Shown here in pieces: positions 5,267 through 61,354 of a DNA stretch of 64,000 nucleotides (position 1 is its first letter; the number at the start of each line of letters is the position of its first letter). Both the position numbers and the translations under genes were made by a program. The notes under the pieces were generated by a model. The model ran no database searches and had not been told where the DNA came from. It was given only the letters and a program-made list of their open reading frames with translations. The DNA comes from Chloroflexota bacterium (lineage in GTDB: Bacteria > Chloroflexota > Dehalococcoidia > Bin125), in contig VXQZ01000033.1 of the NCBI GenBank assembly GCA_009838735.1, forward strand, positions 50,826-114,825. The letters are read 5' to 3'.

Positions 5267-5279
5267 GGGAGTCCTCGGC

Positions 5280-7315: not shown

Positions 7316-7367
7316 CGAATCAGGACAAACAGGTTTCGACTGTCAGTCTCGGGCGCCGTTGCTCACG

Positions 7368-7784: not shown

Positions 7785-8428
7785 CAGGCGACCAACCGCT
7801 GCGCAAATTCCCGCGCGGAATGTACTCCTGAGCCCCTCAACCGAACCGTTCTCTGGCTGCTCCGGGGCTTCCCCAATACGACCAGATCAGGACTCGTCTG
7901 TAAGGCCTTCGCGAAGTTCGGCTTGTCGTATTTTCGGTACTGTTCGACGACTTTGCGGATGTGGTCCATCTGGGTGTCAAGGCCTAGAGCGGTTCGCGCG
8001 CTTAGCACTAACAGCGCAATCTCGCGGGTGGCCTTGCCTTTCGCCGGGGACAGAAGATTGGGGCGCACTTGAACCTCGGGTTCAGCGTCTTCCAAGCCGA
8101 ACAGCATCTCTGCCTGTTCACCTTCGATCTCCAGATAGGAGGAAATCGCATCCATTCGCAGCTCAGGTGTCGAGTAAATGTCGTCCGCCTGTGATCCGTG
8201 CGGTTCTGCCGCGAGCGACGACTCACTCTCCTCGGTGCCGTCGGAGCGCACAGCATCTCCATTCCGGAGCATCGCTTCCAGGACAAGTCTGAATGCCGTT
8301 TCGCGCGTTTCCGGCGCGACTTCATCGCCGAGTTGCGATGCCGCTAGCCAAGCTTCCCGAACCAAGCCGGCCATCTTTAGGCCGGCGTTGGTCAGCGGCG
8401 CATCTGCGGTCTGAGCTTCTGAAACCAT
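7784..8428 (-). CDS. Hypothetical protein, partner of the HEPN-like gene (candidate antitoxin/sensor)
   Basis: 214 aa from the internal ATG (MVSEAQ) preceded by a GGGAGGG RBS; the longer ORF-track start lacks an RBS; no recognisable domain; acidic, helical. Confidence 0.55.
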   Translation of the reverse strand: MVSEAQTADAPLTNAGLKMAGLVREAWLAASQLGDEVAPETRETAFRLVLEAMLRNGDAVRSDGTEESESSLAAEPHGSQADDIYSTPELRMDAISSYLEIEGEQAEMLFGLEDAEPEVQVRPNLLSPAKGKATREIALLVLSARTALGLDTQMDHIRKVVEQYRKYDKPNFAKALQTSPDLVVLGKPRSSQRTVRLRGSGVHSAREFAQRLVA

Positions 8429-8454
8429 GGTTCCCTCCCGACTGCACAAGCGTA

Positions 8455-11400
8455 CTAGATAATAGCCAACTTCTCCAACACTGACGTCAGCACCGACTCC
8501 CAATCCGATTCTGCCAGCCGCCGAGCAGGCTGGTATCGCAGTTGCGTGGAGCCGATCTGCACCTGCCGAGGAACGGCGAGCCGTCGTTGCGACGAGCTGA
8601 AGTTCAGACCTGGCGCCAGGCGCAGGACCACGTTCTCTCCCTCGGACTGGATGGACTCGGCCCCGATCCTCGAAGCGAGCACCTTGAGCTTGACCGCGCC
8701 GAGCAGATTCTCGGTCGGCTTCGGCAGAACCCCGAATCGATCGTTCAGCTCGAGCCTGAAGTCTTCAATTTCATTTGGCGATTCGACGGCGGCCAGCCGC
8801 TGGTAGAGGGTCATACGCAGCCCGACATCGTCGACGTAGGACTCCGGAAGATAGCGAGGGATCGCGAGGTCGAGGTTGACCCTGGTTCCCTGACGGCGGC
8901 TGACGGGCCGCTGTCCAGATCGTTTCGCCTTCGATCGCTCGACTGCCTCGCCGAGCAGCTGAGTGAACAACGTGAAGCCGACCGCCCCGATGTGCCCCGA
9001 CTGTTGCGCGCCAAGCAGGTTGCCGGCGCCGCGGATTTCCAGGTCCTTGAGCGCGATCTGGAATCCGGCCCCGAGGTCGTCCGCCTCCATGATTGTGGCC
9101 AGTCGGCGCTGCGCCACTTCGGACAACGAACGGTACGGCTCGGTCATCAAGTAGGCGTACGCGCGCACGCTGGCGCGCCCGACACGCCCGCGGAGTTGGT
9201 ACATCTGCGCCAGTCCGAGCCGTTCGGCGCGGTCGATGATCATCGTGTTGACGCGAGGAATGTCGACGCCTGACTCGATGATCGTGGAGCAGACCAGAAC
9301 GTCCGCTTCGCCGTGGGTGAAGCGTTCCATGTGCTCGCGCAGGACATTGGCCGGCATCTGTCCGTGAGCGACCAGAAAGCTCGCCTCCGGCACCAGGCGG
9401 CTCAGCTCATTGGCCTCCCGGTCGATTGTTCTCACCTCGTTGTGCAGGAAGTAGACCTGACCGCCCCGATCGAGTTCCCGCAGGATCGCCTCGCGGATCA
9501 CGCTGTTGTCGCGTTCCATGACGTAGGTGCTGATCGGCAGTCGCTCTTCGGGCGGTGAAGCGATCGTCGACATGTCGCGGATCCCGGTCACCGCCTGATG
9601 CAGCGAGCGGGGAATCGGCGTCGCCGAGAGCGTGAGCACGTCAACCTCGCGGCGCAGCTTCTTCAGACGTTCCTTGTGTTCGACCCCGAAGCGTTGTTCC
9701 TCGTCGATCACCAGCAAACCAAGGCTCTTGAAGCCGATGTCCTTCTGCAGCAATCGGTGCGTGCCGATCGCGATATCAATCTTGCCGACCTTGAGTGCGT
9801 CCACTGTTTGTTGCTGTTCGGCCGATGTGCGTAGCCGGGACAGCAAGCCAATCTCGACCTGCATCGCAGCCAGGCGTTGGCGAAACGTCTCGTAGTGCTG
9901 TTGCGCCAACACCGTGGTCGGCACCAGCACGGCGACCTGATGACCGGACATGACCGCCTTGAATGCGGCGCGGATGGCGACTTCGGTTTTGCCGTAGCCG
10001 ACATCGCCGACGATCAGCCGATCCATCGGCCTGGACGCTTCCTGGTCTCGGCGGACTTCTTCAATCGCGCGATGCTGGTCGGTGGTCTCCACGTAGGGGA
10101 ACGACGCTTCCAGCTCGATCTGCCAGGGAGTATCCGGCTCGATCGGGATTCCCGGCTCGGTCTCCCGGGCGGCATGGAGCTCGAGCAAATCGTCGGCGAT
10201 CTCGGCGACCGCTCCACGGACCCGAGCCTTGGCCCGCTGCCACTGGCCGCCTCCGAGCCTGGTCAGCGTCGGCGGCGCATCGGAGGGGCCGACGTACGGC
10301 TGGACCCGGTCGAGCTTGTCGGTCGGCACCAGCAGTCGGTCGCCTTTGGCGAAACGCAGGTCTAGGTACTCGCCCTCGCGACCACCGATCCGTTCGCGAA
10401 CCACGCCATGGAAACGTCCAATGCCGCTATCGACGTGGACCACGTAGTCGCCTTGCTTGAGGCTTTCCAGCAGATGAGGATCCGAGGCAGGTACGGCACG
10501 GGTCTTGAGCGGTCGGCGCTGACGCTGACGCTCGAATCCGAATATCTCTGTGTCGCTGATCAACGTGACCAGACGCTCTCCGGTCTGCGGATCGTCAAGC
10601 CGCCAACCCTCCGCGATCGCCGCTCGCCCGATCGAGATCGCCAACCGATCAGGCCTGCTCCCAGGTTCCAGCTTCGACAGTGGCAACCCGAGGTCCGTCA
10701 TCAGTTCGGCCAGCCGCGCCTCTTGCAGGGAGACCACGACGTGGGCGCCGCGCCCTCTGGATTCGCGCAGCGATTCGAATAGCTGCGACAGTTTGCCCGC
10801 CAGTCGCGGAGTCGGTCGGAAGGGCAGACGCTGGTCGCCGCTGGCGAGACGGGACAGCGATCGGACCCGACGCGTCGACCGATACATCTCAGCTTCCAGC
10901 TCATCGCAGGTGAGCCACGGATGAGGGAGCCCGTGAGGGATGCGAGCCTCCCACTCCAGCTCACCGCGAGCGTCCTCGGCACGCTGATCACGCTCCTCGG
11001 CTCGAGCAGATACGTCGTGCGGCTCGTCGACGATGATCAATGCATCGTCGCCCAGATGGGCAAAGACCGTGCCGGATGCGAGAAACTGCGTCCAGAAGTC
11101 CGGCCGTGCCGTGGGACCGCCGTTTCGCAGGTGCTCCAGATCCAGCGTCAACAACGCGGCTTCCGCGGTCGGCTCCGCAGCGTCGTTCTCATCCCTGCGA
11201 TCCTGATCAACTGCCGTCAACAGTGCTTCGACCAGCGGTTCGCTGGCCGGCCCCGGACTCCACTCGCGAGCCGGCCGAACGGCGACCCGTTCGACAGCCT
11301 GCGTCGAGCGCTGGGTGAGCGGATCGAATCGGCGAATCGAGTCGATGTCATCGCCAAACAGCTCGACCCTGACCGGCTCGTCCTCGGCCGGCGGCCAGAA

Positions 11401-11964
11401 ATCGACAATCCCGCCTCGCACGGCAAACGTCGACGGTTCTACCACGAGTCGGCGTCGTTCGTAGCCGTTGGCGTCAAGCGATCGAACCAGGTCGGCCATT
11501 CGGATTGAGGATCCCAGACAGAGTTCGATAGGAGCAGAGACCGCGGCGACGGTGCGTTGCGCAGCGGCGTCAACGTCGGCGACGACGATCGGCGAGCCCT
11601 GGCGCAGCGATTCGATCGCGGAGAGCCGCGCTTCGACAGTGTCCGGCGCGGGCTTCTGCCGTTCATACGGGGCCGTCTCGCGGGCCGGAAACTGGAGCAG
11701 CCGGCTACGGTCGCGCTCCCCGAGCCAGAGCGGCAAGGCGTCGACCAGATCGGCGGCGTTGGTGGGTGTTGGCGTCAGGACGAGCACCGGACCCTGATGC
11801 CGGGCGGCCAGCACGGCGATGACGGCCGGCTTGGCGGCGTCGGGCAGGCCCAGCATCGGCTGGGCATCGAACGGCTCAATCGCCCCAAGCACGACGGGGC
11901 CCAGCCCGTCGAGCAGACCCGGCGGGGTGTCGTGCGGGATGTCGTGCGGGTCGGTGGCGCTCAC
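8455..11964 (-). CDS. mfd: Transcription-repair coupling factor
   Basis: 1169 aa; DEAD/DEAH helicase motifs (GDVGYGKTEVA, VIDEEQRFG), CarD-like and TRG domains; GTG start. Confidence 0.95.
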   Translation of the reverse strand: MSATDPHDIPHDTPPGLLDGLGPVVLGAIEPFDAQPMLGLPDAAKPAVIAVLAARHQGPVLVLTPTPTNAADLVDALPLWLGERDRSRLLQFPARETAPYERQKPAPDTVEARLSAIESLRQGSPIVVADVDAAAQRTVAAVSAPIELCLGSSIRMADLVRSLDANGYERRRLVVEPSTFAVRGGIVDFWPPAEDEPVRVELFGDDIDSIRRFDPLTQRSTQAVERVAVRPAREWSPGPASEPLVEALLTAVDQDRRDENDAAEPTAEAALLTLDLEHLRNGGPTARPDFWTQFLASGTVFAHLGDDALIIVDEPHDVSARAEERDQRAEDARGELEWEARIPHGLPHPWLTCDELEAEMYRSTRRVRSLSRLASGDQRLPFRPTPRLAGKLSQLFESLRESRGRGAHVVVSLQEARLAELMTDLGLPLSKLEPGSRPDRLAISIGRAAIAEGWRLDDPQTGERLVTLISDTEIFGFERQRQRRPLKTRAVPASDPHLLESLKQGDYVVHVDSGIGRFHGVVRERIGGREGEYLDLRFAKGDRLLVPTDKLDRVQPYVGPSDAPPTLTRLGGGQWQRAKARVRGAVAEIADDLLELHAARETEPGIPIEPDTPWQIELEASFPYVETTDQHRAIEEVRRDQEASRPMDRLIVGDVGYGKTEVAIRAAFKAVMSGHQVAVLVPTTVLAQQHYETFRQRLAAMQVEIGLLSRLRTSAEQQQTVDALKVGKIDIAIGTHRLLQKDIGFKSLGLLVIDEEQRFGVEHKERLKKLRREVDVLTLSATPIPRSLHQAVTGIRDMSTIASPPEERLPISTYVMERDNSVIREAILRELDRGGQVYFLHNEVRTIDREANELSRLVPEASFLVAHGQMPANVLREHMERFTHGEADVLVCSTIIESGVDIPRVNTMIIDRAERLGLAQMYQLRGRVGRASVRAYAYLMTEPYRSLSEVAQRRLATIMEADDLGAGFQIALKDLEIRGAGNLLGAQQSGHIGAVGFTLFTQLLGEAVERSKAKRSGQRPVSRRQGTRVNLDLAIPRYLPESYVDDVGLRMTLYQRLAAVESPNEIEDFRLELNDRFGVLPKPTENLLGAVKLKVLASRIGAESIQSEGENVVLRLAPGLNFSSSQRRLAVPRQVQIGSTQLRYQPARRLAESDWESVLTSVLEKLAII

Positions 11965-12036
11965 GCGCGCAGACTCCGTCCGCTGACGTCTGGACTCAGC
12001 TTATGGGAGCCTGATCCAACGAACGTTATGCCAGGT

Positions 12037-12690
12037 TCAACTCTGGCCGTCCGGCGCCGAACGGTTGTACAGGTTCATCGCCGACTCGACGCCATGCTCC
12101 AACAGGTGGACGACCGCCTCGGCAGCGCGCATTTCGGCATCGTGCAACAGCCGACGCTCCGCCGGAGTCGGGTCACTGAGCAACCAGTCCGCGACATCAT
12201 CGGGATGATGCGACGGTTTGCCGTCGACCATCGGACGGCCAACGCCGATCCGAATCCGAGGAAAGTCAAGCTCACCGATCGTGGCGCGAATCGAACGCAT
12301 GCCACGCTGACCGGCGTCGGACCCTGAGGGCCTGATCCGGATCCGTCCGGGTTCCAGATCAAGTTCATCGACGAGCAGGATCAGGTCCGACGGCTCGGCG
12401 CGGTACTTGTCGAGCAGCGATTGCACAGCTTTGCCCGACTCGTTCATGAACGTTCGCGGAACGACGACGGCGACCGGTCCATGAGCCGTCTGAGCCTGAG
12501 CGACGCGGAAGCGTGCCTCACGCTGAAGCTGCGGCAGTCCGAGCCCACGTCGGATGAGCTCAGCCGAGCGTGCGCCTGCGTTATGTCGGTTCTGCGAGTA
12601 GTCCGCTCCAGGATTTCCCAGACCAACGATCAGCCGGGCACCCTGAAGCGGCTTGAGTCCGCGCCTTCGAAGTTTGGGCAGTCTGACCAT
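12037..12690 (-). CDS. pth: Peptidyl-tRNA hydrolase
   Basis: LIVGLGNPGADYSQNRHNAG signature; N-terminal extension of about 18 aa, so the true start may lie downstream. Confidence 0.85.
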   Translation of the reverse strand: MVRLPKLRRRGLKPLQGARLIVGLGNPGADYSQNRHNAGARSAELIRRGLGLPQLQREARFRVAQAQTAHGPVAVVVPRTFMNESGKAVQSLLDKYRAEPSDLILLVDELDLEPGRIRIRPSGSDAGQRGMRSIRATIGELDFPRIRIGVGRPMVDGKPSHHPDDVADWLLSDPTPAERRLLHDAEMRAAEAVVHLLEHGVESAMNLYNRSAPDGQS

Positions 12691-12783
12691 GCGCCTATTC
12701 TTTCATCGGATGCCGACTTGGCGGTTGCGTCAAATCGGGCTAGATCACGCCTAACCGGCAAGTTGGGAGTTTGCGTCGTGCCG

Positions 12784-13068
12784 ATGCCCTCAGAGGCAGA
12801 AGTTAGCCGCGTGCTACTTCTGTTGCTGCACCGGAGCGAATCGGGAATGCGAACTGGAGATGCCATCGTGGCTGTTTCAGTAGCGTTTCCCCAGATCACG
12901 GAGAGCGATCTCAACGAGACTGTCCCATCCGGCGAAAACAGATGGCAGAACCGCGTGCGCTGGGCGCGAAACGATCTTGTGAAGGCCGGCCTCCTTGATC
13001 CATCGCAACACGGATTCTGGCTCTTGACCAAGAAGGGTCACGAGGACGCAAGGCGAATCTTCCCATAG
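12784..13068 (+). CDS. Mrr_N (restriction-system Mrr N-terminal) winged-helix domain protein, standalone
   Basis: 95 aa; SGENRWQNRVRWARNDLVKAGLLDPSQHGFWLLTKKG aligns with the E. coli Mrr N-terminal domain (recalled); GGGAG upstream; a GTG at 12778 is an alternative start. Confidence 0.7.
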   Translation: MPSEAEVSRVLLLLLHRSESGMRTGDAIVAVSVAFPQITESDLNETVPSGENRWQNRVRWARNDLVKAGLLDPSQHGFWLLTKKGHEDARRIFP

Positions 13069-13189
13069 CCCTCTTTGAAGCGTCTACGGATTTCTCAAAG
13101 TAGCTCAGCTCAATGAGCTGTCGTGGGCACCGCCCGGCTGCAGAGCAATGCTCAAAGTGTCCGCGCTCGTAGCACTGAGGGACTTCAGC

Positions 13190-14773
13190 TCACTCTCCGA
13201 CGTACTTCTCGCCCAGGGCGGTTTCCCAGCGCAGGTAGTGCTGCATGTCGGCGTAGCCGCGCTGCGGACCGAAGGTCAGGATGTCGTTGGGCGGCGCGAG
13301 CACTCCCGTCAGGCCGTACTCGATCGGGAGCCCAGCCGCGTGCCAGTTGCCCATGCCGCCTGCGATCGCGGAGACGTTCGGGCGCCCCAATTCGAGCAGC
13401 GTCTGGGCTGCCAACAACGATTGCCGGCCGGACTCGCAGACGATAATCAACGGCGTCGACTCCTCCGGGGCCAACGATTGGATATCCCGCTCCAGCCAGC
13501 CTCTGGGCGCCCATCGAGCTCCCGGCGGATGCGCCCGAGCGAACTCCTCGCTCGTACCGACGTGCAGGATCACCGCGTCGGGCTGATCGAACGTCTCTGA
13601 AGCCTCAATGGTGATCACGGTCTGGCGTGCCTGCGACAACAGACCAGGCTCAGTTGTCCTCATGCCTGATTCCAATCGCCGGCCGGCCGAAGTCCACGCC
13701 TCTATCCCTCCATCGAGCGCATAGATGTGTCGATGGCCCATCTGCCGGTACCACGACGCCGTCAGCGCGGCGCGCGCCACGCCGTCGCAGGCGAACACGA
13801 TCGGCGCATGGTGAACAACCGCAACGTCATCGCTGCGCTGCACTGCCTGTCCACCGGGGAACCAGCGGAAGCCGGGGATGTGTCCGGCCTCGTGCTCGGC
13901 GTCGGTACGGACGTCGATGAGGTACACACTCTCCGACTGGCTCCGCCCGCGAAGCTCGTTCACTTGCTCGACGCCAATGAGTTGAACGCCATCCTCTTCA
14001 GCGCAGCGCCGCGCATACTGTTCGGCCGCAGCCTGACCCTCGGCGGAAACGGCGGGCAGCGCATCGCGGTCGGCGCCAAACTCAAGCTCGTGACCGGCCA
14101 GCATCCAGCCCGCGGTGCCGTTCTTCAGACCAATGACCTCGCGCTTCAAGGACATCCGCTGCAACACCCTGGTGCCAATGATGCTGCGCGTCCGTCCGGC
14201 GCAGTTGACCACCACCGTGGCGTCGTCCGGCGCGTCGGCAAGCACATCGGTGATCCGGAAGGCAAGTTCGCCTCCGGGCATGCTGCGCCCGCCGGGGATG
14301 CAGGAACGCCGGTACTCCTCCGGCGTCCGCGTGTCGAGGATTACCAGCGGGTCGCCGCGTTCTATCCGCGCATGCAGGTCGTCCGCGTCGATCTCCGGAA
14401 CGCGGTGCACGACCTCGACCCGCTCACCAAAGTCCTTGCTGGGCACATTGACGCCCCACTCGGTCGGCAGGTCGAGAAACGCCCAACGGTTGGTCCCGCC
14501 GGAAAGCGTCGAAACATCGGAGTAGCCCATGCGCTCAACCGTCTCGGCGGCAAAATGAACGCGCCGCTCATCCTCGTCGCACAGCACAATCGGCGTATCG
14601 CGATGTGGCACAGCCTCGGGAAGCTCGAACTCAAGCATCCGCCGAGGAATCAGGCTGGCCCCAACGATATGCGACGCGTTGTACTCAGGAGGATCACGAA
14701 CGTCTATCAAAGCAATCGGCGCATCGTCGGAAAGCCGGTCGTGGAGGTCGTCGGGTGTGATTGGTGGTGGCAT
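13190..14773 (-). CDS. Multi-domain rhodanese-like sulfurtransferase (four tandem rhodanese domains)
   Basis: 527 aa; repeated rhodanese modules with active-site Cys loops (CDEDERR, CAGRTRS, CDGVARA, CESGRQS). Confidence 0.85.
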   Translation of the reverse strand: MPPPITPDDLHDRLSDDAPIALIDVRDPPEYNASHIVGASLIPRRMLEFELPEAVPHRDTPIVLCDEDERRVHFAAETVERMGYSDVSTLSGGTNRWAFLDLPTEWGVNVPSKDFGERVEVVHRVPEIDADDLHARIERGDPLVILDTRTPEEYRRSCIPGGRSMPGGELAFRITDVLADAPDDATVVVNCAGRTRSIIGTRVLQRMSLKREVIGLKNGTAGWMLAGHELEFGADRDALPAVSAEGQAAAEQYARRCAEEDGVQLIGVEQVNELRGRSQSESVYLIDVRTDAEHEAGHIPGFRWFPGGQAVQRSDDVAVVHHAPIVFACDGVARAALTASWYRQMGHRHIYALDGGIEAWTSAGRRLESGMRTTEPGLLSQARQTVITIEASETFDQPDAVILHVGTSEEFARAHPPGARWAPRGWLERDIQSLAPEESTPLIIVCESGRQSLLAAQTLLELGRPNVSAIAGGMGNWHAAGLPIEYGLTGVLAPPNDILTFGPQRGYADMQHYLRWETALGEKYVGE

Positions 14774-14877
14774 GGCTGAAGTCTAGGTCCGAACTCATCG
14801 ACTGACTTCAGTTCGTCCCCCTCCGCCAATTCGCCGCGAGGAGACCCGCGCGTCGACCACGGACTTGCAGTTGCCGT

Positions 14878-14910
14878 CAACCCCCTCTCCCTCGGGAAGA
14901 GGGGACCGGA
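14878..14910. repeat. GC-rich palindromic repeat, family B (CCCTCTCCC-N3/4-GGGAGAGGGGACCGGA)
   Basis: ccccctctccctcgggaagaggggaccgga; related copies at 17298-17395 and 44166-44241. Confidence 0.7.
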
Positions 14911-14941
14911 ATGAGGATTGCGGATAGGTCTTGGGACGCCC

Positions 14942-16354
14942 CTATACCGCCGCCAACCGCGACGCCTTCTGCAGCGCATTCGCCGCGCGCTCGAAGCTGG
15001 GGAACGTGGCGATCCCCTCCTCCTGCAGCCTCATCCTCGCAGTCAGCGCGGCCTCCTCAACGTGGCTCGGATGCAGCGCCGCCAGGAACGGTTTGCCCGA
15101 CTCGGCCATGAACTTCTTCAGCGAGCCGATCAGGCGGTCGAACTCCTCCGGCTTGTCCTGCCAACGACGGGCCATGAATGTGGCCGAGAGTTCCATCCCG
15201 ACCGCGTCGATGTTCTCGTCTGCGTTGAGGATGTCGAAGATCGTGTCCAGGTGCTTGGGGTCCTGGCCGATCGTCCCCGCGGCGTCTAGCGGGTTACGGT
15301 AGCTGCCGCCGATGATGTTGAAGAACTCGGAGAGCTGGGCATAGCTCTCGTCTGAGAGCGTCGGCACCTTCCAGCCCGCCTTCTCAAAGGCGTCGGTAAG
15401 CACGACCGACTGTCCCCCGGTCATGGCGATCAGGCCGAGCCGATTGCCCTGGGTGCGCTTGGTCAGCAACGTGGCCTTGACCACATCGATCATCTCGTCG
15501 AGGTTATGCACCGCGACCGCGCCGACCTGCTTAATCATCGCCTCCCAGATCGCCTGGTCGCTGGCCAGCGAGGCCGTGTGCGAGCGAATCGCGCGTCCGC
15601 CGCCCTCGGTCTGGCCGCCCTTCCAGATGATCACCGGCTTCTTCGCGGCGACCTCGCGCAACGTCTTGAACAGGCGCTGCCCATCGCGGGCACCCTCGAT
15701 GTACATGCCGATCACTTCGGTCTGCGGGTCGTCGGCGAGGTACTCGAGGTAGTCGGCGGCCTCGAGAATGATCCCGTTGCCAAAGCTGACCAGGGTCGAG
15801 CAGTACAGGCCGTGCGCGGCGCCGGTCAGGGAGAAGTTCATCCCGTGGGTACCCGATTGCGAGACAAAGCCGATGTTGCCCTGCACGCCGGCCGGTTGGT
15901 CGCGGTTGAAGCGCACGCCGAGACCGGGCACGTGCAGCCCCATGCAGTTGGGTCCGATCAGGGCCAGTCCCGAGGGGTCGGCAATCTCAAAGATCTTGTT
16001 CTGCAGCTCGACGCCGATGTCTTCGCCGGTCTCGGCGAATCCGGAGGTGAACAGCGTGACGCCGCCGACGTTGGCCTCAACACAACCCTGGACGATGAAC
16101 GGCGCGACTTGTCGCGGCACTGCACAGACGGCGAAGTCGACCTGATCCGGAATGTCGGTCAGCGATTTGTAGTTGGGGATGCCCAGCTCTTCGATCCCGG
16201 GAATCTCGTTCTCGTCGACTTGCACGCTGTAAACGGGGCCGTCGAACTCTTTCATTGAGCGCAGCCAGTTGTAGCCACTCGCCTTCTTGTCGCCAATGAC
16301 GGCGACCACCTTGGGCGCAAGTGCACGGGTCAGGCGTTCACGTGTGACGGCCAT
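14942..16354 (-). CDS. Acetyl-CoA synthetase (ADP-forming), alpha subunit (CoA-binding/succinyl-CoA-synthetase-like)
   Basis: 470 aa; N-terminal CoA-binding Rossmann (VVAVIGDKKASG) plus ligase-CoA domains. Confidence 0.85.
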   Translation of the reverse strand: MAVTRERLTRALAPKVVAVIGDKKASGYNWLRSMKEFDGPVYSVQVDENEIPGIEELGIPNYKSLTDIPDQVDFAVCAVPRQVAPFIVQGCVEANVGGVTLFTSGFAETGEDIGVELQNKIFEIADPSGLALIGPNCMGLHVPGLGVRFNRDQPAGVQGNIGFVSQSGTHGMNFSLTGAAHGLYCSTLVSFGNGIILEAADYLEYLADDPQTEVIGMYIEGARDGQRLFKTLREVAAKKPVIIWKGGQTEGGGRAIRSHTASLASDQAIWEAMIKQVGAVAVHNLDEMIDVVKATLLTKRTQGNRLGLIAMTGGQSVVLTDAFEKAGWKVPTLSDESYAQLSEFFNIIGGSYRNPLDAAGTIGQDPKHLDTIFDILNADENIDAVGMELSATFMARRWQDKPEEFDRLIGSLKKFMAESGKPFLAALHPSHVEEAALTARMRLQEEGIATFPSFERAANALQKASRLAAV

Positions 16355-16377
16355 CGGAAGTCTCCTAGCTCAATCAG

Positions 16378-16502
16378 CCTCCCCCTCGCAGGGGGAGGTG
16401 CCGAACGCGGAGGGGGTCCCGCCCGGCATTGGCGAATCTGCTCGTAACACCGCGAAGGACCCCCTCAGTCGCTACGCGACAGCTCCCCCTGCGAGGGGGA
16501 GC
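16378..16502. repeat. Inverted pair of ~43-nt GC-rich repeat units, family A (GCTCCCCCTCGCAGGGGGAGC-TGCCGAA-N-GAGGGGGTCCC), MITE-like
   Basis: Left unit 16378-16420 and right unit 16457-16502 are near reverse complements; each unit contains a 9-bp-stem hairpin; a single copy lies at 22017-22058. Confidence 0.75.
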
Positions 16503-16509
16503 GGGATTT

Positions 16510-17205
16510 CTACGAGTCTGAAGTCAGCAGAATGCGGGCGTCAACGGCGATCGCCCCATCGGGACGCGCGAAGACGGGATTGAGGTCCAGCTCCGCGATT
16601 TCCGGGTTTGCTTCCGCAAACTCCGAGAGCTGCAGCAGCATCGACTCAATTGCCTCGAGGTTGGCCGCCGGCTGACCGCGGAAGCCCTCGAGCAGCGGGA
16701 ATCCCTGGATCTCGCGAACCATCTCGGCAGCGTCACGCGGTTCGAGCGGGACAATACGGAAGGCGACGTCCTTGAGCACCTCGACGAACACGCCGCCGAG
16801 GCCGAACATCAGGACCGGTCCGAACTGCTGATCCTGGGTAATCCCCAGAATCACTTCCGCGCCCGGCTCGGCCATCGGCTGCACCGACACGCCCTGCGCC
16901 TGTGGATCGTCCACAGCGGCGGTCACCCGTTCGTGGATGCGCTCACAGGCGGCGCGCAACGCGTCCTCATCGGCGACGCCCAACTCGACGCCGCCGACAT
17001 CGGTCTTGTGCGTGATCTTGTCCGAGACCACTTTGAGCGCAACCGGATAGCCGAGCTCGGCAGCGTGTGCGGCGGCCTCGTCGATGGACGTGGCTAGCCG
17101 AGTCTCGGTCACATTGATCCCGGCCTCGGCCAGTAACTGCTTGGCCTCCACCTCGGACAGAATGGTGCGGTTCGCGGCGCGCGCGGCGGCAATGACATCG
17201 GTCAT
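16510..17205 (-). CDS. Acetyl-CoA synthetase (ADP-forming), beta subunit (ATP-grasp)
   Basis: 231 aa from the internal ATG (MTDVIAAAR) with GGAG RBS; ATP-grasp motifs (GYPVALKVVSDKITHKTDVGGV). Confidence 0.85.
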   Translation of the reverse strand: MTDVIAAARAANRTILSEVEAKQLLAEAGINVTETRLATSIDEAAAHAAELGYPVALKVVSDKITHKTDVGGVELGVADEDALRAACERIHERVTAAVDDPQAQGVSVQPMAEPGAEVILGITQDQQFGPVLMFGLGGVFVEVLKDVAFRIVPLEPRDAAEMVREIQGFPLLEGFRGQPAANLEAIESMLLQLSEFAEANPEIAELDLNPVFARPDGAIAVDARILLTSDS

Positions 17206-17297
17206 GGGCGTCTCCGGCAGGAATGGGCGTTCAACTGCGCGCAGAATACACGCCGACTTCCGAACCGCGGACGCGGACCTGGTCCGCATGAGGCGAG

Positions 17298-17395
17298 ACT
17301 CCCTCTCCCTCTGGGAGAGGGCTGGGGTGAGGGTCCCTTCTCGCTAACCGGCGGACCCTCACCCTAACCCTCTCCCTCGGGGAGAGGGGACCGGA
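17298..17395. repeat. Inverted pair of family-B palindromic repeat units
   Basis: ctccctctccctctgggagagggctggggtgagggtccc (17298-17337) and ggaccctcaccctaaccctctccctcggggagaggggaccgga (17354-17395) are near reverse complements; located in the divergent promoter region. Confidence 0.7.
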
Positions 17396-17470
17396 GCTAA
17401 CTCTCGGCGTTGGGCGACCGGCTATTCTGTATACTCAGTTTCGCAGTTAAGAATCGCTGAGGAGTTGGCC

Positions 17471-17689
17471 ATGGCCGAGGGTGACCCGTTCGAGGACTGG
17501 CTGGACATCGTCGAGGCGGCGAGGGAGCTGAACATCCATCCGCAATCCATGCGCCGGCTAATCAAGCAGGGCCGGGTCCCCGCCCGCCTCTACGGCGGCA
17601 AGTACCTCATCGAGCGAGACCAACTCCTCATGTTCAAGTCCAACTACGACCCCCGCCCCGGCCGCAAGCGCTCCCCTCGGCTGCTGTAG
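17471..17689 (+). CDS. Helix-turn-helix (excisionase/MerR-like HTH_17) DNA-binding protein
   Basis: 72 aa; ARELNIHPQSMRRLIKQGRVPARLYGGKYLIERDQL is a classic HTH_17 pattern; GAGGAG RBS 6 nt upstream of ATG. Confidence 0.8.
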   Translation: MAEGDPFEDWLDIVEAARELNIHPQSMRRLIKQGRVPARLYGGKYLIERDQLLMFKSNYDPRPGRKRSPRLL

Positions 17690-18279: not shown

Positions 18280-20262
18280 TTAGTGCGCCGACGACGCCCC
18301 CTCGATGATCTCCTCGACCACGTGAGGCTCCGCCAACGTCGTCACATCGCCGACGTTTTCCGGCTCGCCCTCCGCGACCTTGCGCAAAATCCGACGCATG
18401 ATCTTCCCCGACCGCGTCTTCGGCAACCCGCCGACGAACTGGATCCGGTCGGGCGTCGCGATCGGACTGATCTCCGCCCGCACCTGTCGCTTCAGCTCGA
18501 CCGCCAGGTCAGGTCCGGGGTCGAAACCGTCCTTGAGCAGCACGTAGGCGTAGATGCCCTCGCCCTTGATCTCATGCGGATAGCCGACGACCGCCGCCTC
18601 AGCGCAACCGGCATGGCCGACGAGGGCGCCTTCAATCTCCGCCGTGCCCAGCCGGTGGCCCGAGACGTTGAGCACATCGTCCACCCGGCCGGTCAGCCAG
18701 TAGTAGCCGTCGTGGTCGCGGAATGAGCCGTCGCCGGTGAAGTACTTGCCCGGATACTGGACGAAGTACGTGTTGATGAATCGCTCGTGGTCCCCATAGA
18801 CCGTGCGCATCATCCCCGGCCAGCTCCGAGCCATGCAGAGCAGCCCGCTCTGCTGATTCCCCTCAAGCTCGTTGCCGTCCGGATCGACTAGCACCGGCTC
18901 GATGCCGAAGAACGGCAGTGAGGCCGAACCGGGCTTCATGTCGTTGGCGCCGGCCAGACCGGTCAGAATGTGCCCGCCCGTCTCGGTCTGCCAGTAGGTG
19001 TCCACGATCGAGCAGTGCCCGTCCCCGACGATTCCGTGATACCAGCGCCAGGCCTCGGGATTAATCGGCTCGCCGACGGTGCCGAGCACACGCAGGCTGG
19101 TCCGCTCGTGGACCTTGACCCACTCGTCGCCCTCGCGCATCAGGGCGCGGATCGCCGTCGGCGCGGTATAGAGGATGTTGATCCCCAGCCGATCGACCAT
19201 GTCCCAGTAGCGTCCCGCGTCGGGATAGGTCGGAATCGACTCAAACATCACCGAGGTCGCCCCGTTGCCCAGCGGTCCGTAGACGATGTAGCTGTGCCCG
19301 GTGATCCAGCCGACGTCGGCCGCGCAGCAGTAGATGTCGCCCTCGCGGTAATCGAACGTGTAGCGATGGCTCAGCATGGTGAACAGCAGGTACCCGGCCT
19401 GCGTGTGCAGCACGCCCTTGGGTTTCCCCGTCGACCCCGACGTGTACAGGATGAACAGCGGATCCTCGGCGTCGAGAATCTCGGGCTCGCACTCTTCCGA
19501 CTGGTGAGCAACGGTCTCGTGCCACCAGACGTCGCGGCCGTCCGTCATCGTCACGTCGCCGCCGGTGTGCTGATGGCAGATGACGAACTCGACGCAGTCG
19601 ACGCCGGCAGCGTCAAGCTGGTCCATCGCCGCGTCAACGTTGGCCTTGAGTGGCACCGTCCGCCCGCCGCGCTTGCCCTCGTCCTGCGTGATCACGGCCT
19701 TGCAGAGCGAATCCTCGACTCGGTCGGCGATCGCCGTCGCCGAGAATCCACCGAAGATCACCGAGTGAATCGCGCCAATCCGAGCGCAGGCCAGCATCGC
19801 CGCCACGACCTCAGGAGTCATCCCCATGTAGATCGCGACCCGGTCGCCCTTGCCGACGCCGCGGCTACGAAGCTCATTCGCCAGCCGGCAGACCTCGGCG
19901 TGCAGTTCGCGGTACGAAATCGACTCGTTGTCCGCCGGCTCGTCGCCCTCCCACAGGATCGCCGTCTGGTCGCCGCGCTCTGCCAGGTGCCGGTCGAGAC
20001 AGTTGACGGACACATTCAGCTTCGCCCCAAGGAACCAGGCGATCTTGCCCTCAGCCAGGTTCTCCTCGCTCAGCGTGTGCCACGGCTCGACCAGATCGAG
20101 ATGTTCATTCGCCATCTCCGTCCAGAAGGCGTCCGGCTCGTCCAGCGATCGCCGCCACAGCGCTTCATAACCCTCGCGCGACACAACCAGCGCGCCCTCG
20201 CGCACATTGTCAGGCGGCGAGTACGTCTCGTTGACCGGCATGGCAGCGTCTGGGGTAGTCAT
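18280..20262 (-). CDS. acs: Acetyl-CoA synthetase (AMP-forming), acetate--CoA ligase
   Basis: 660 aa with the canonical Acs N-terminus and AMP-binding motifs ([11 protein letters not shown]). Confidence 0.95.
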
Positions 20263-20384
20263 GTCAGCATCCTCGTCTACACAGGCGAAGTCGTCATGCC
20301 AAAAATCCTAACGCGCCCCGACATTCCCCGTCCCCTCCATCGAGCGGGGACCAGCTCCGCGCCGAACGCCTTCCTCACCCGTAA

Positions 20385-20432
20385 CCGTCATTCCCGCGCC
20401 CTCTCCGTCATTCCCGCGCCCGGCGCGGGAAT
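20385..20432. promoter_or_regulatory. Two direct copies of ccgtcattcccgcgccc followed by the inverted copy ggcgcgggaat, forming an ~11-bp-arm palindrome
   Basis: Read in sequence upstream of acs (minus strand) and just downstream of the stop of 20509-20790; could be an operator or a terminator. Confidence 0.5.
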
Positions 20433-20508
20433 CTCGCCCCATTCCGCAGAGACGACAAATCATCCGACTTGGCCACTGACGCAAATCGTGGCCCGACAGC
20501 TTGGACCC

Positions 20509-20790
20509 TTATCCTCCCCGAGCGAGCAGCGCACCCAGGGTCGCCAGCACCGCCGCGAACCCGATCCCGATCCCCCACATCAACAGCTTCAGCTTCGCGT
20601 CCACGTCGGCCCGCAAATCGTCGATCCGGCCATTGACCTCAGAACGCAGATCACCCATTCGTTCGTTGATGTCACCCATTCGTTCGTTGAAGTCGGAACG
20701 CAGATCGTCGATGCGCTGGTCTATTCGCGTGAGCGCATCACTCACACCAACATTCCCATCCACTTCGCCCGAGCGCTCACTCGACACCAT
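20509..20790 (-). CDS. DUF1640-like coiled-coil protein with C-terminal TM helix (paralogue 3)
   Basis: 93 aa; tandem heptad-like NERMGDINERMGD encoded by a 21-nt tandem DNA repeat at 20650-20691; C-terminal KLLMWGIGIGFAAVLATLGALLA. Confidence 0.6.
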   Translation of the reverse strand: MVSSERSGEVDGNVGVSDALTRIDQRIDDLRSDFNERMGDINERMGDLRSEVNGRIDDLRADVDAKLKLLMWGIGIGFAAVLATLGALLARGG

Positions 20791-20862
20791 GCGGACCTCC
20801 CGACATCATTCAACGCTCGCGATGCAACCACAGTGTAGCTTTCCACCGGTCACCATGCACCC

Positions 20863-21117
20863 TCACCGCCCATCACCCGACCCGCCGGGAACCAGCCCGT
20901 CATCCGACAGCGCGTCCGCCGTCATCTCCAACACTCCGAACCAGAACGCCGCCGTCGACCCTGGAAAGTCGTGAATCAACTCCCGGATCAGACTCCGCCC
21001 GTCAGGCATGTCGCCATAGGCCAGCATGATCACGATCAGCGAGTCCACCGCCTCGCGATAAATCTTCTCAACCTCCGCTTGCTCCTGTAGATCCTCCAGG
21101 TTGCGCAGCTCCGACAT
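20863..21117 (-). CDS. Hypothetical small protein (84 aa)
   Basis: Strong GAGAGGAG RBS; co-directional and immediately upstream of the DUF1640-like gene; no domain recognised. Confidence 0.5.
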   Translation of the reverse strand: MSELRNLEDLQEQAEVEKIYREAVDSLIVIMLAYGDMPDGRSLIRELIHDFPGSTAAFWFGVLEMTADALSDDGLVPGGSGDGR

Positions 21118-21248
21118 CCGACGCTCCTCTCTTATGCAGCGTGCCCTCGGCCAACGGACGTTCGCCCCGACACACTTGGCTCTCCATTCAGAACATATTC
21201 ACTATATGGTAAGGCGAACATCTGTGCTCTCCGTGAAAGGAAACAACG

Positions 21249-21965
21249 ATGCAGATCTCACCCCGACGACGACAACGCGCCCTCAGAGTCCACGAGCTGC
21301 GACAGAGAGGACGTTCGCTACGCAACATCGGCAAACAACTCGACATCTCTCACTCCACGGTGCTCGCCGATCTCAAGCTGATCGAAACGCGCTGGAGCGA
21401 GCTCACGCGGCAATCCACCGACGACTTCCAGCTCGAACAACTCGCCCTGATGCAGCGGCGCCTGCGCATGCTCCTCCGGCGCGACCTGCTCAAGGAGTTC
21501 GGGCGGCTCAGTCCCATCGACTTCGTCCGCATCCACGAGGCCCACAACCAGGAGCTCGCCATCCTCCTCCGCGAGACGCGGCGACTCGCCGCTGAGCTCC
21601 GCGAACGAGCCGATCTCCGTGATCTCGATCCCGCCGAGCTCCCTCCGGAACTCGACTTCCCCGAGGAAGAACTGGTCTCGGCTCTCAAATCGACAAGACC
21701 GGCGAAATCGACCGAGTCGGCCAGAGCCGCAAGGGCAGGAGAGCCGACCACCACTCACCACGGCCTGCCAAAATCTTCCAAACCCAACCACTTCAACCAC
21801 CCAATTCCCCGCAAAACACTGGAAATCGCGTCATCGACCGCGCCAGAAAAAATCTCCAACCAACCGCCCGCGGACCTCACCCCCGAACAGCTCAACCAAC
21901 AAGCCGAGACCTTCCTCCGCAACTACAACAGACAGGAGCTCCAACCCACCGCCGCCGGCGGCTAG
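21249..21965 (+). CDS. HTH DNA-binding protein with long Pro/Ser/Thr-rich disordered C-terminal tail
   Basis: N-terminal LRVHELRQRGRSLRNIGKQLDISHSTVLADLKLI (sigma-70 region-4 or IS-type HTH-like); AGGAAA RBS; AT-rich promoter-like region at 21118-21248. Confidence 0.6.
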   Translation: MQISPRRRQRALRVHELRQRGRSLRNIGKQLDISHSTVLADLKLIETRWSELTRQSTDDFQLEQLALMQRRLRMLLRRDLLKEFGRLSPIDFVRIHEAHNQELAILLRETRRLAAELRERADLRDLDPAELPPELDFPEEELVSALKSTRPAKSTESARAARAGEPTTTHHGLPKSSKPNHFNHPIPRKTLEIASSTAPEKISNQPPADLTPEQLNQQAETFLRNYNRQELQPTAAGG

Positions 21966-22016
21966 GTGCGGGACCTACCGGCCGCGCAACATGCGCTAAC
22001 CCTCTCTATCTTCTTC

Positions 22017-22058
22017 GCTCCCCCTCGCAGGGGGAGCTGCCGAAGGCTGAGGGGTCCC
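22017..22058. repeat. Single copy of the family-A GC-rich palindromic repeat unit
   Basis: gctccccctcgcagggggagctgccgaaggctgaggggtccc, near-identical to the units at 16378-16502. Confidence 0.75.
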
Positions 22059-22212
22059 GTTCCCGCCGAACGAACGCGTCGTTGTACCCGCCTTCCCTCT
22101 CCCGTCCACTCTTGTTCCGAGAGCGTGTTTGCTCCCTCGTAGCCTGCCCCCCACCCGACGCGGTGATACGATGCGCAACAGGGCACACAGAGCCGAGTCG
22201 AGAGGTCCCACG

Positions 22213-22557
22213 ATGGCGCAGCAGGAACCGTTTCAGCGAATCTCCGTGGAGCAAGCGGAAGAGAAGCGACAGGCCGGCGTAACCCTGGTCGACACCCGCG
22301 AACTGGACGAGTACCAGGATGGCCACGCCGCCGGCGCCCCACTGATGCCGCACATGTCCGTCATGACCCGCGCCGACGAACTCGAGCAGATCGCCGGCGG
22401 CAAGGACGAACCGATCATGTTCATCTGCGCCAAGGGCCAGCGCTCCGCCGTCGCCTGCGAGTTCGCCGCCGCGCTCGGCTTCACCGACCTCTACAACGTC
22501 GAGGGCGGCACCGACGCCTGGATCGCCGCCGGCTTGCCGATCGAGCATCCCGCCTGA
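22213..22557 (+). CDS. Single-domain rhodanese-like protein
   Basis: 114 aa from the ATG preceded by GAGAGG; active-site loop FICAKGQRS. Confidence 0.8.
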   Translation: MAQQEPFQRISVEQAEEKRQAGVTLVDTRELDEYQDGHAAGAPLMPHMSVMTRADELEQIAGGKDEPIMFICAKGQRSAVACEFAAALGFTDLYNVEGGTDAWIAAGLPIEHPA

Positions 22558-23852: not shown

Positions 23853-24521
23853 ATGTCAACCGGGCTGATCGTCGGCATCATCATCATCCTGCTCGTGGTC
23901 GGCGTGCCAATCTTGCAGGCGCTCATCCGCGGCGCTCAGCGCCGCCGATCGCTGGCCGCCGAAGGCGTCCCCGCCTTGCGCGACGCCGGACTGCGACCCG
24001 AAGAACTGCCCTCTGGCCTGTCCCGTCAGACCGCCGAGGCCGTCACCTCCGAGGACATCGCGCTGGCCGACGACAACCCGGAAGCCACGATCACCCAGCT
24101 CGACGACGCAGGCCGGATCATCGGCTATCGCGAGAGTTTCCGCGAGCCGCGATCCTGGGGCGAATTCATGGACTGGGTCCTGGCCCAGTCAATCTTCCGC
24201 AACCGGCAACATCGCCGGGTCGAAGTCGAACTGACCAGATACGACTCGTCTGAGCACGCCAATGAGGCGCTGCAGGCCGATCCACCCTCAGACCTCGGCG
24301 ATGCAGGCGTCAGCGTCGAAGACGCTGGTGAGCGTGGCGGACTCATGGCGCGCGAATGGATCCGCACAGAGCACGGCGACACGGTGCAGCGCATGCTGGA
24401 GTTGCGCTGGGCCTCCGGCGATGTGCTCGGCGTCGTCCGTGGCGACTCTGAGCCCTCCGGAGCGCTCGACGATGAGGAAGTGCGTCGCCTCGCCGGGTTG
24501 GTCAAGGCCCGCCTCGGATGA
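23853..24521 (+). CDS. Hypothetical membrane-anchored protein
   Basis: 222 aa; N-terminal TM (GLIVGIIIILLVVGVPIL); no domain recognised. Confidence 0.5.
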   Translation: MSTGLIVGIIIILLVVGVPILQALIRGAQRRRSLAAEGVPALRDAGLRPEELPSGLSRQTAEAVTSEDIALADDNPEATITQLDDAGRIIGYRESFREPRSWGEFMDWVLAQSIFRNRQHRRVEVELTRYDSSEHANEALQADPPSDLGDAGVSVEDAGERGGLMAREWIRTEHGDTVQRMLELRWASGDVLGVVRGDSEPSGALDDEEVRRLAGLVKARLG

Positions 24522-24991
24522 ACGCTGAGCAACGCGATGAACTCCTTGCCCGCTACCGTGCGGCGCCGAAGCTGTTGGCCGACTCGGTCGCCGGATCATC
24601 AATCGCCCAGCTCGACGGCGCGCCGCCCGAGCCAGGCTGGACCGCGCGCGAGAACGTGCATCACGTGTCCGACATCGCAATCATGGCCGGTCTGCGCCTC
24701 CGCCTAATGCTGCTCGACATCGAGGTCGAAATGTGGCCGATCGACGGCGACACCATGCAGAAGCGGCTACGCAACGACCAGCGGCCGATCGGTCCGGCGC
24801 TGAGGACGGTGGACGGGTTGGTCGAGTCGGCCTGCTCGATCCTCGGCTCTCTAAGCGAAGAAGAGTGGACCCAGCCGCGTCCCATGCCGGTGGCCCGATC
24901 CCGTAGCGTCGAGGAATGGCTTGAAGCCAGCGTGCGGCACATCGAACAACACGTCGATCAGATCCGCTACGCCCTCACCGGCACCTGCTAG
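24518..24991 (+). CDS. DinB_2 (DinB/YfiT-like four-helix-bundle metal-dependent) family protein, copy 1
   Basis: 157 aa; conserved His positions (HHVSD ... HIEQH) typical of DinB_2. Confidence 0.65.
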   Translation: MNAEQRDELLARYRAAPKLLADSVAGSSIAQLDGAPPEPGWTARENVHHVSDIAIMAGLRLRLMLLDIEVEMWPIDGDTMQKRLRNDQRPIGPALRTVDGLVESACSILGSLSEEEWTQPRPMPVARSRSVEEWLEASVRHIEQHVDQIRYALTGTC

Positions 24992-25001
24992 GACGTGCCA
25001 G

Positions 25002-25478: not shown

Positions 25479-25504
25479 CAACGACGGAGAATCGGAGACC
25501 GATC

Positions 25505-26083: not shown

Positions 26084-26101
26084 TCGGAGTAGCATCGGCC
26101 C

Positions 26102-26527: not shown

Positions 26528-26533
26528 TGACCG

Positions 26534-26965: not shown

Positions 26966-27049
26966 CCGTCGACCTGATACGCCTTGACAGACCCGGTTCG
27001 TCATCCAGCCCCGTCCCCACTATCTTGACCGTGAAGCGGGAGGCTGTGT

Positions 27050-38915: not shown

Positions 38916-38924
38916 GATGGTTCG

Positions 38925-59392: not shown

Positions 59393-61354
<1,962 letters not shown>

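Follow-up and report, generated by a model that had tools for sequence, protein, structure and literature searches.

Intrastrand triplex motifs of the BoxC, PIT, and TM kind are among the most conserved non-coding repeats of bacteria, and after 30 years we know of no function or mode of spread for them, nor of evidence that the triplex forms in vivo. The architecture, which came to light in Escherichia coli and also occurs in further Proteobacteria, has been named BoxC (in the 1990s), PIT element (Hoyne et al. 2000), and TM_ECO (Holder et al. 2015; PMC4666352). In E. coli, TM_ECO follows the pattern CCCTCNCCC N3-6 GGGNGAGGG N3 GGGNGAGGG, and its triplex is stable in vitro according to circular dichroism (CD), nuclear magnetic resonance, and melting temperatures of 70–82 °C (PMC4666352). 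The copies are strictly intergenic, without strand bias and without a link to a transposase; strain K-12 has five inverted doublets, each joining a unit with a TTA loop (type A) to one with a CCG loop (type B), and the loci are rearranged among strains above background (PMC4666352). Here, we examined a 64,000-nt stretch of a Chloroflexota genome (assembly GCA_009838735.1, contig VXQZ01000033.1, positions 50,826–114,825; hereafter, the window) and in particular an inverted pair of GC-rich repeats at positions 16378–16502, whose unit we designated family A. As judged from its sequence, family A is probably a class II purine-motif intrastrand triplex motif of the BoxC/PIT/TM_ECO kind, in a Chloroflexota (Dehalococcoidia-type) variant; what is new in it is the mini-hairpin in the second loop, the different stem sequence, and the strand bias.

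An initial annotation of the window had described two inverted units at 16378–16420 (+) and 16457–16502 (−), each with a 9-bp G/C stem, and both direct reading and self-comparison bore this out, with perfect 9-bp hairpins at 16378–16398, 16482–16502, 22017–22037, and 61362–61383. What had been overlooked is the nature of the tail, GAGGGGGTCC, which is not an independent motif but the mirror image of the hairpin's purine arm, and this places family A in the BoxC/PIT/intrastrand-triplex-motif class. The aligned copies share a plan made up of (i) a hairpin, X-CTCCCCCT / 3–4-nt loop / AGGGGGAG-X', (ii) a linker, and (iii) a tail, GAGGGGGT-CC. The order of pyrimidine, purine, and reverse-Hoogsteen arms on one strand held in all four window units and in 165 of the 177 covariance-model matches parsed. 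The subtypes differ in the closing pair, and the tail follows it, as in GCTCCCCCT...AGGGGGAGC...TGAGGGGGT, CCTCCCCCT...AGGGGGAGG...GGAGGGGGT, and TCTCCCCCC...GGGGGGAGA...AGAGGGGGG; some copies have an additional hairpin inserted into loop 1 or loop 2. The tail is complementary to nothing within the unit and is left single-stranded in the DNA fold, computed with ViennaRNA, which handles Watson–Crick pairs only; in unit 2, the first hairpin and the mini-hairpin form and the tail stays unpaired. With a covariance model built from family A and run on the window with filters off, unit 1 scored 58.1 bits (E = 3.6e−11), unit 2 scored 75.3 bits (E = 5.8e−15), and the single unit at 22017–22058 scored 62.2 bits (E = 4.5e−12). 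Allowed triplets numbered 9/9 in both units of the doublet. The 19-mer hairpin pattern matched the window exactly at three places, against 0.46 expected even with three mismatches tolerated.

The rules for antiparallel purine-motif triplexes allow G.G:C, A.A:T, and T.A:T (PMC2532714; PMC4666352). For the mirror test, 124 sites were gathered by the exact 19-mer hairpin alone and the flank was inspected afterwards, so that the test is not circular. The 3' flank offered 9/9 allowed triplets at 70 of these sites and at least 8/9 at 103, compared with 0 and 6 in shuffled flanks, and the flank on the other side of the palindrome scored near background. When the register was set by the seven internal positions, the closing position of the purine arm was followed in the tail without exception (108/108), with G giving G (46/46), C giving T (41/41), and A giving A or T (21/21). 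At the apex, A was answered by T at 88 of 101 sites and G by G at 6 of 7. Stems longer than 9 bp kept the rule at 60 of 64 extra positions, including Planctomycetota copies with 12 triplets. Furthermore, when every hairpin whose homopyrimidine arm reached 8 bp or more was scanned independently, 36 of 41 distinct purine arms had a tail with at most one mismatch, and perfect tails numbered 142 against 2 in shuffles; A in the purine arm was tracked by A or T at the mirrored tail position. The homopurine tract covers the eight core positions, and in G-type units the ninth (closing) position is C, opposite which the tail has T (41/41). Three other readings of the tail were tried and rejected. Read as a direct repeat, it had a mean score of 7.12, below the 8.29 of the mirror reading. 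Watson–Crick pairing with the pyrimidine arm is possible with CCCCCTC at a 2-nt shift, but on inspection by hand was rejected as the main constraint because the covarying closing position is not involved. A pyrimidine-motif triplex on the complementary strand fits only 7/9 positions because the tail has T opposite A:T at the apex.

The linker, or loop 2, has a structure of its own. Its length is 10, 14, or up to 34 nt, and that of loop 1 is 3–4 nt. In Dehalococcoidia-type copies, the linker consists of TG, a stem, a triloop, the other side of the stem, and C, as in GCC-GAA-GGC, GTCGC-GGA-GCGAC, GTCAC-GGA-GTGAC, GGCGC-GAA-GCGCC, and CCCGC-GAA-GCGGG. The stem changes by compensation (GTCGC/GCGAC, GTCAC/GTGAC, GGCGC/GCGCC, and CCCGC/GCGGG), with 99.6% of cells paired and four pairs changed on both sides, compared with 48–62% in slid controls. 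The parsed triloops are mostly GNA (GAA, GGA, GCA, or GTA) closed by C:G, with AGA, AAA, and AAG as exceptions. Mini-hairpins of the type d(GCGNAGC) or CCGAAGG are extremely stable as DNA and far less so as RNA, bind single-stranded DNA-binding protein (SSB) poorly (PMC13037366; PMC3201870), and are found in single-strand initiation (ssi) signals and in the single-stranded promoters of phage N4 (PMC13037366). In other phyla, loop 2 is a 3-nt TTA, CCG, CTG, or TTG, as is typical of E. coli. We also noticed four loci of Planctomycetota metagenome-assembled genomes (MAGs) in which a 12-triplet stem, AGGGGGAGAAGG, is mirrored by GGATGAGGGGGT across a hairpin-bearing loop 2, TGGCCGAAGGCC; the mini-hairpin-in-loop design therefore extends beyond Chloroflexota.

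On single-stranded DNA, CTCCCCCT would pair with AGGGGGAG to form the hairpin; the second loop, itself a hyperstable d(C-GNA-G) DNA mini-hairpin, would turn the strand back, and the tail GAGGGGGT would then occupy the major groove, running antiparallel to the purine arm and contributing to G.G:C, A.A:T, and T.A:T triplets. Such a fold may arise transiently when DNA is single-stranded in replication or repair, where it could impede polymerases and exclude SSB, which would make the loci unstable and lead to selection against one orientation. Template switching or a structure-specific enzyme may then copy the unit to further intergenic sites.

Several points weigh against assigning family A to the triplex class and against this scheme. 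We infer triplex formation from sequence rules. The T.C:G triplet assumed at the closing position of G-type units is one that Beal and Dervan reportedly described for the purine motif. T.CG is listed for the pyrimidine motif only (PMC2532714). Dimethyl sulfate footprinting did not reveal the TM_ECO triplex in vivo, and in the presence of the complementary strand the duplex prevails (PMC4666352). Because the G-, C-, and T-type subfamilies may go back to few independent events, 108/108 overstates the independence of the closing-position counts; this concern is eased because 36 of 41 different stems comply. Two window copies are imperfect: the unit at 22017 has the tail TGAGGGG-TCC, one G short, and reaches 7/9 triplets with a 1-nt deletion, and the copy at 61363–61407 is decayed, with 6/9 tail triplets. 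No target-site duplication was recognized by eye in the aligned flanks, which lacked an exact filled/empty pair. Finally, the GC skew of 8-kb chunks, against which orientation was scored (see below), is a mere proxy for replication direction.

The features of the window that bear on the repeats are collected in Table 1. The doublet lies in a 155-nt gap, after the stop codon that ends the upstream gene and before the ribosome-binding site that serves the downstream one. Its placement between co-directional genes, as originally described, holds, since both flanking genes lie on the minus strand. The product of the upstream gene is the beta-like part of an ADP-forming acyl-CoA synthetase. The 125-nt doublet folds as one long hairpin (−101.8 kcal/mol, z = −7.9, equaled by 0/200 shuffles), and the sequence of its spacer is weakly conserved between genomes. 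The same arrangement recurs at 77–84% identity in 11 places in other Dehalococcoidia/Chloroflexi MAGs. Roughly half of the units at Dehalococcoidia-type loci are paired, in 21 tail-to-tail, 2 head-to-head, and 4 direct pairs. In the 21 tail-to-tail doublets, the spacers measure 18–40 nt, and at least 17 join a short loop 2 to a long one and none joins short to short; the window doublet conforms. Both public short-read contigs of the locus (window positions 4942–16477 and 12724–16417) stop inside the doublet, at 16477 and 16417, indicating that the repeat fragments assemblies of these MAGs. At seven loci of Dehalococcoidia MAGs (OZ219805.1, CBDCDO01), we observed the doublet inside a larger nested inverted repeat, GGAGACCTTTGCATAATCCCTTT ... 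AAATTAATCAAAGGCCTCC, with more outer arms, giving a composite of ~220 nt present in many copies.

Table 1. Positions of the repeats, their parts, and the flanking genes in the window
Feature	Position	Strand	Details
Tail-to-tail inverted doublet (heterotypic)	16378–16502		Short-loop unit + long-loop unit
Family A unit 1	16378–16420	+	C-type, short loop 2; perfect 9-bp hairpin
Unit 1, pyrimidine arm	16378–16386		CCTCCCCCT
Unit 1, loop 1	16387–16389		CGC
Unit 1, purine arm	16390–16398		AGGGGGAGG
Unit 1, loop 2	16399–16408		TGCCGAACGC
Unit 1, mirror tail (reverse-Hoogsteen arm)	16409–16417		GGAGGGGGT, then CCC
Doublet spacer	16421–16456		36 nt, separates both tails
Family A unit 2	16457–16502	−	G-type, long loop 2; minus strand GCTCCCCCT CGC AGGGGGAGC TGTCGCGTAGCGAC TGAGGGGGT CC
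Unit 2, tail (plus coordinates)	16459–16467		
Unit 2, mini-hairpin (plus coordinates)	inside 16468–16481		GTCGC-GTA-GCGAC
Unit 2, hairpin (plus coordinates)	16482–16502		
Upstream flanking gene	16510–17289	−	ATP-grasp_5 protein; Pfam E = 6e−85
Downstream flanking gene	14942–16354	−	CoA_binding + Succ_CoA_lig protein (Pfam); alpha-like part
Family A single unit	22017–22058	+	G-type, short loop 2 TGCCGAAGGC
Decayed family A unit	61363–61420	+	Hairpin GCTCCCCC TGTT GGGGGAGC; loop-2 hairpin TGTCAC AAG GTGAC; degenerate tail CGAGGGCGC; 40.2 bits, E = 3.2e−7
Family B unit	17301–17336	+	CCCTCTCCC TCT GGGAGAGGG CTG GGGTGAGGG TCC; exact TM_ECO/BoxC pattern
Family B unit	17353–17388	−	Loop 2 TTA (E. coli type A); TM_ECO pattern at 17356–17388
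Family B single unit	44177–44209	−	TM_ECO pattern, loop 2 TTA; between two minus-strand genes
Degenerate B-like hairpin	14871–14911		CCCCTCTCCC TCG GGAAGAGGGG; 71% identity; between two minus-strand genes

Every family A copy in the window is intergenic. The single unit at 22017–22058, between the plus-strand genes 21249–21965 and 22129–22557, had been called near-identical to the units of the doublet, which is so for most of its length (92% identity between 22018–22054 and 16379–16415) but not for its shortened tail. The variant hairpins noted at 61362–61420 are there as well, and consist of the decayed family A copy and, 3' of it, an extra small hairpin, CTCCCC AATT GGGGAG (61405–61420), flanked by convergent genes with stops at 61354 and 61438. 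Open reading frames (ORFs) called mechanically cross the repeats in places, such as 17231–17362 (−) and 17084–17347 (+), with peptides such as ...PHPSPLPEGEGV..., and MAG annotations probably owe some spurious "hypothetical proteins" to such repeats.

The proposal of a dispersed multi-copy family proved correct, genome-wide and in many genomes. In a scan of one genome per species for the exact 19-mer, at least 120 stretches matched. Among the matches listed, Dehalococcoidia/Chloroflexota MAGs account for about half, a single chromosome contributing up to ten stretches, and the remainder comes from Planctomycetota, Methylococcaceae, Gallionellaceae, Prevotella, Nitrospira, and other groups. Several of the MAGs (bin125, SB0664, RHO1, and the ENGE20 sample) are probably sponge-derived. 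The covariance model found 177 units in the 0.92 Mb of 19-mer-bearing stretches, and beyond the ascertained copy there was about one further unit per 9 kb, so that, by extrapolation, a 3.5-Mb genome might hold a few hundred family A units. The enrichment between genes that had been proposed as a check is strong: in a gene context drawn from a crude prediction based on G+C content at third codon positions, 82 of 94 units (87%) lay outside predicted ORFs, compared with 25% expected (p = 1.5e−37), 46 of them in tandem, 27 in convergent, and 9 in divergent gene gaps. Among 2.9 million viral contigs, the 19-mer matched once. The literature search found no paper that contains the exact family A sequences.

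The spacer that holds the doublet, between acdB and acdA, has three repeat architectures among genomes in which the flanking protein is 94–100% identical. A contig at 94% identity has two tail-less hairpins parted by AAAGAAGTTGATTGGC, and one at 97% has an inverted full unit and two hairpins. Where the homologues are 46–59% identical and the adjacent upstream gene is kept, the spacer is 15–25 nt long and repeat-free. Distant relatives have no repeat in this spacer and close ones have a rearranged set, so the repeats were acquired in this lineage and are undergoing reshuffling, which matches the instability described for the E. coli loci. In the orthologous spacer of close relatives (L124, 2300–2500; L125, 1100–1300), we observed tail-less CTCCCCC hairpins alternating with AAAGAAGTTGATTGGC-like spacers, a mosaic that recalls the linker motifs of bacterial interspersed mosaic elements (BIMEs).

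The single units at Dehalococcoidia-type loci are oriented. Their triplex-capable strand was on the locally C-skewed strand in a ratio of 36:6 where |skew| was at least 0.02 (p = 3e−6), and 28:3 where it was at least 0.05. Predicted genes showed no coding-strand skew (mean 0.001), the bias persisted outside tandem-gene contexts (16:4) and at convergent sites (8:1), and few of the loci counted are homologous to one another. Short-loop relatives in other phyla showed no such bias (20:14). The two informative single units of the window, at 22017 and 44177, both follow it. If G-skew is taken, as usual, to mark the leading strand, the lagging-strand template is depleted of the triplex-capable strand, which would fit selection against a polymerase-blocking fold or strand-specific insertion. 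Within the window, GC skew changes sign (at ~24000–28000), running negative between ~6 and 26 kb and positive between 26 and 60 kb, and its cumulative minimum lies near 25 kb. This switch is independent of gene direction because the minus-strand genes at 36.8–45.4 kb lie in positive skew, and it could mark an inversion boundary or the origin or terminus of replication; the neighbors scanned included no dnaA-like gene.

The alternatives differ in which of these observations they account for. Elements of the repetitive extragenic palindromic (REP) and BIME type set relative mRNA levels in some E. coli operons, and hairpins of family A, above all that of the doublet at about −100 kcal/mol, could likewise act on RNA, as terminators, processing sites, or barriers to 3' exonucleases. 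In keeping with this, convergent gaps are favored over divergent ones (27 and 9), units in tandem contexts lie in sense orientation at 31:15 (p = 0.026), and the doublet sits within an apparent two-gene operon with a very stable RNA fold. However, the GC-skew bias, itself 8:1 at convergent, transcription-symmetric sites, confounds the sense bias. The tails are G-rich, no U-tract (T-tract in the DNA) follows any unit, and a terminator/promoter scan found nothing at any of them, so the suggestion that the repeats are terminators did not stand; PIT elements, as cited in PMC4666352, had no promoter or terminator activity in E. coli (Hoyne and Maher 2002). Moreover, purine-motif triplexes reportedly do not form in RNA (PMC4666352), so an RNA role leaves the conserved mirror tail unexplained, and C:G-closed GNA triloops are a DNA-specific stability motif (PMC13037366). 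We therefore consider a role in RNA improbable. Mobilization of the inverted doublets in trans by a REP-associated tyrosine transposase (RAYT) present in single copy, as for REP doublets of the REPIN type and as the initial annotation had in mind, would account for intergenic, multi-copy single units and doublets with long hairpins and for BIME-like mosaics. The units have no GTAG or CGTC at their ends, the sole GTAG being in the variable loop of one copy, and of 6704 ORFs taken from the window and ~0.94 Mb of repeat loci, none matched E. coli RayT at E ≤ 10 in a phmmer search; this search, with a single divergent query and limited genome coverage, only weakens the proposal. No transposase domains were found near the window copies, a Pfam scan of the neighboring small ORFs gave no mobility genes, the E. 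coli BoxC/TM_ECO elements have no transposase link (PMC4666352), and the mirror tail with its covariation is left unexplained, all of which makes a REP/RAYT system quite unlikely here.

A DNA-level signal, in the form either of a binding or initiation site at which a protein would recognize the conserved G-rich mirror and the mini-hairpin (a primase or ssi system, a nucleoid protein, or a recombinase) or of a hairpin/G-quadruplex switch without a triplex, would suit the GC-skew orientation if it were linked to replication; CCGAAGG and GCGGAGC serve as recognition elements both in ssiA, a priming signal of plasmids, and in the single-stranded promoters of phage N4 (PMC13037366), and a G-quadruplex–hairpin switch has been proposed for E. 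coli relatives, in work cited by PMC8044849. Against it, 36 of 41 different stems keep the mirror, which fits self-structure better than a sequence-specific protein site, and no candidate protein was identified; with only two G-runs per unit, an intramolecular G-quadruplex is also unlikely. A signal of this kind thus seems to us a doubtful explanation. That the repeats are a chance or compositional artifact can practically be dismissed: the genome has 62–68% G+C, and short G/C palindromes are frequent in it, but E-values from the covariance model go down to 6e−15, only 0 to 0.46 pattern matches are expected, the 125-nt arrangement has full-length matches in other genomes, and all window copies are intergenic.

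Under the triplex-motif assignment, the units may be best regarded as selfish or neutral repeats that persist under structural constraint, and not as gene-regulatory signals. The covariation and the orientation bias argue for a constraint on single-stranded DNA, not on RNA or duplex DNA. A bolder interpretation, which we put forward tentatively and regard as rather unlikely, is that the mirror-tail covariation, seen at sites gathered without triplex rules, constitutes the first comparative evidence for selection maintaining an intramolecular DNA triplex across bacterial phyla. In this interpretation, the SSB-resistant mini-hairpin turn and the 6:1 skew orientation of the Dehalococcoidia variant would together suggest a life cycle coupled to replication and played out on single-stranded DNA, and the family would be either a new class of structure-defined mobile or self-propagating element that requires no transposase of its own or a replication or priming signal. 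The family bears on whether DNA triplexes matter in cells. The intrastrand triplex motif class now extends to Chloroflexota, where the classical BoxC form is nearly identical to that of E. coli, and in practice such repeats break short-read MAG assemblies and can seed spurious ORFs.

This classical form is represented in the window by a second family, family B, for which the TM_ECO pattern had three matches (17301–17333 +, 17356–17388 −, and 44177–44209 −) and none expected. The first two units make up a tail-to-tail doublet upstream of the ATP-grasp gene (fold −74.3 kcal/mol, z = −5.8). The segment 17296–17400 is 83% identical over 90% of the query to the E. coli BoxC doublets, which matched in 5409 of 5426 complete E. 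coli genomes at a median of 18 places per genome, and it joins a CTG/CCG-loop unit to a TTA-loop unit just as the E. coli hrpB–mrcB spacer does. Families A and B co-occur in Chloroflexota loci, and the closest repeat relatives of family B are in Chloroflexota MAGs; its cross-phylum likeness to E. coli BoxC could reflect either horizontal transfer or convergence. The degenerate hairpin at 14871–14911 has no valid mirror tail as judged by eye only. Adjoining the family B doublet is a small ORF with an HTH_17 domain (excisionase/MerR-like) at 17465–17689 (+), followed by an unannotated 182-aa coiled-coil-like ORF, and no integrase was seen nearby. The region 20200–22050 has an odd composition (GC skew −0.2 to −0.38, AT skew up to +0.4), contains small ORFs without Pfam matches along with one ORF of 238 aa whose sole match, to HTH_38, is weak, and includes a perfect 10-bp hairpin, ATTCCCGCGC-CCG-GCGCGGGAAT, at 20410–20432. 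A perfect 12-bp hairpin at 38886–38916, CACCTAGCCCCC TCACGGA GGGGGCTAGGTG, lies between convergent genes and belongs to neither family.

Compared with described systems, family A resembles REP, BIME, and REPIN elements in being a short intergenic palindrome found as single units, inverted long-hairpin doublets, and mosaic clusters, and in its heterotypic pairing (as of Y and Z REPs in BIMEs), whereas it lacks the GTAG/CGTC tag, no RAYT was found for it, and it has a third, mirror arm. With miniature inverted-repeat transposable elements (MITEs) such as Correia/NEMIS, RUP, and Nezha, it shares a ~125-nt doublet with terminal inverted repeats in many copies; it differs in the lack of a recognizable target-site duplication, in that no parent insertion sequence was seen for the doublet, and in the occurrence of single units. 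The inverted doublets and the single copies that had been reported are both present. Among RNA families, Rfam gave one tRNA only for the whole window at the gathering threshold, and microRNA precursor models and others for the locus at E ≤ 10, all far below gathering scores; we attribute the microRNA-model matches to the long-hairpin shape. The G-rich/C-rich repeats of Methanomicrobiaceae are likewise intergenic GC hairpins with a G-rich strand for which an antiparallel intramolecular triplex is possible, and theirs was shown in vitro by CD and S1 probing (PMC8044849). In contrast to family A, their arms come in the opposite order, with the C-rich tract 3' of the G-runs; these number four and make a G-quadruplex possible as well, and no loop mini-hairpin is described.

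Loop 2 of family A contains CCGAAGG, GCGAAGC, GCGGAGC, and GCGTAGC with the C:G closing pair of the ssi and N4 mini-hairpins; those are parts of unique origin or promoter signals for primase or RNA polymerase, whereas that of family A is the turn of a dispersed repeat. With BoxC/PIT/TM_ECO, to which family B of the window belongs, family A has in common the class II purine-motif succession of pyrimidine arm, loop, purine arm, loop, and G-rich mirror arm along a single strand, stems of 8–12 nt, an intergenic location with per-genome copy numbers in the tens or above, a pairing of two loop-2 types in inverted doublets, loci that are hypervariable between close relatives, and no linked transposase seen. 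The stem is CTCCCCCT in family A and CCCTCNCCC in theirs, G-type family A units have one non-purine at the stem base, and among 5426 E. coli genomes there was no match to family A, nor does family A match the TM_ECO pattern. Loop 2 of family A is 10–34 nt long and carries the d(C-GNA-G) mini-hairpin, whereas theirs is 3 nt long; it thus exceeds, as loop 1 does not, the limits of the published searches (1–6 nt for ITxF, Holder; 0–10 nt, Hoyne et al.), which are operational search settings and not physical requirements. Finally, family A is strongly oriented with respect to GC skew, in contrast to the TM_ECO elements of E. coli, which are distributed without strand bias.

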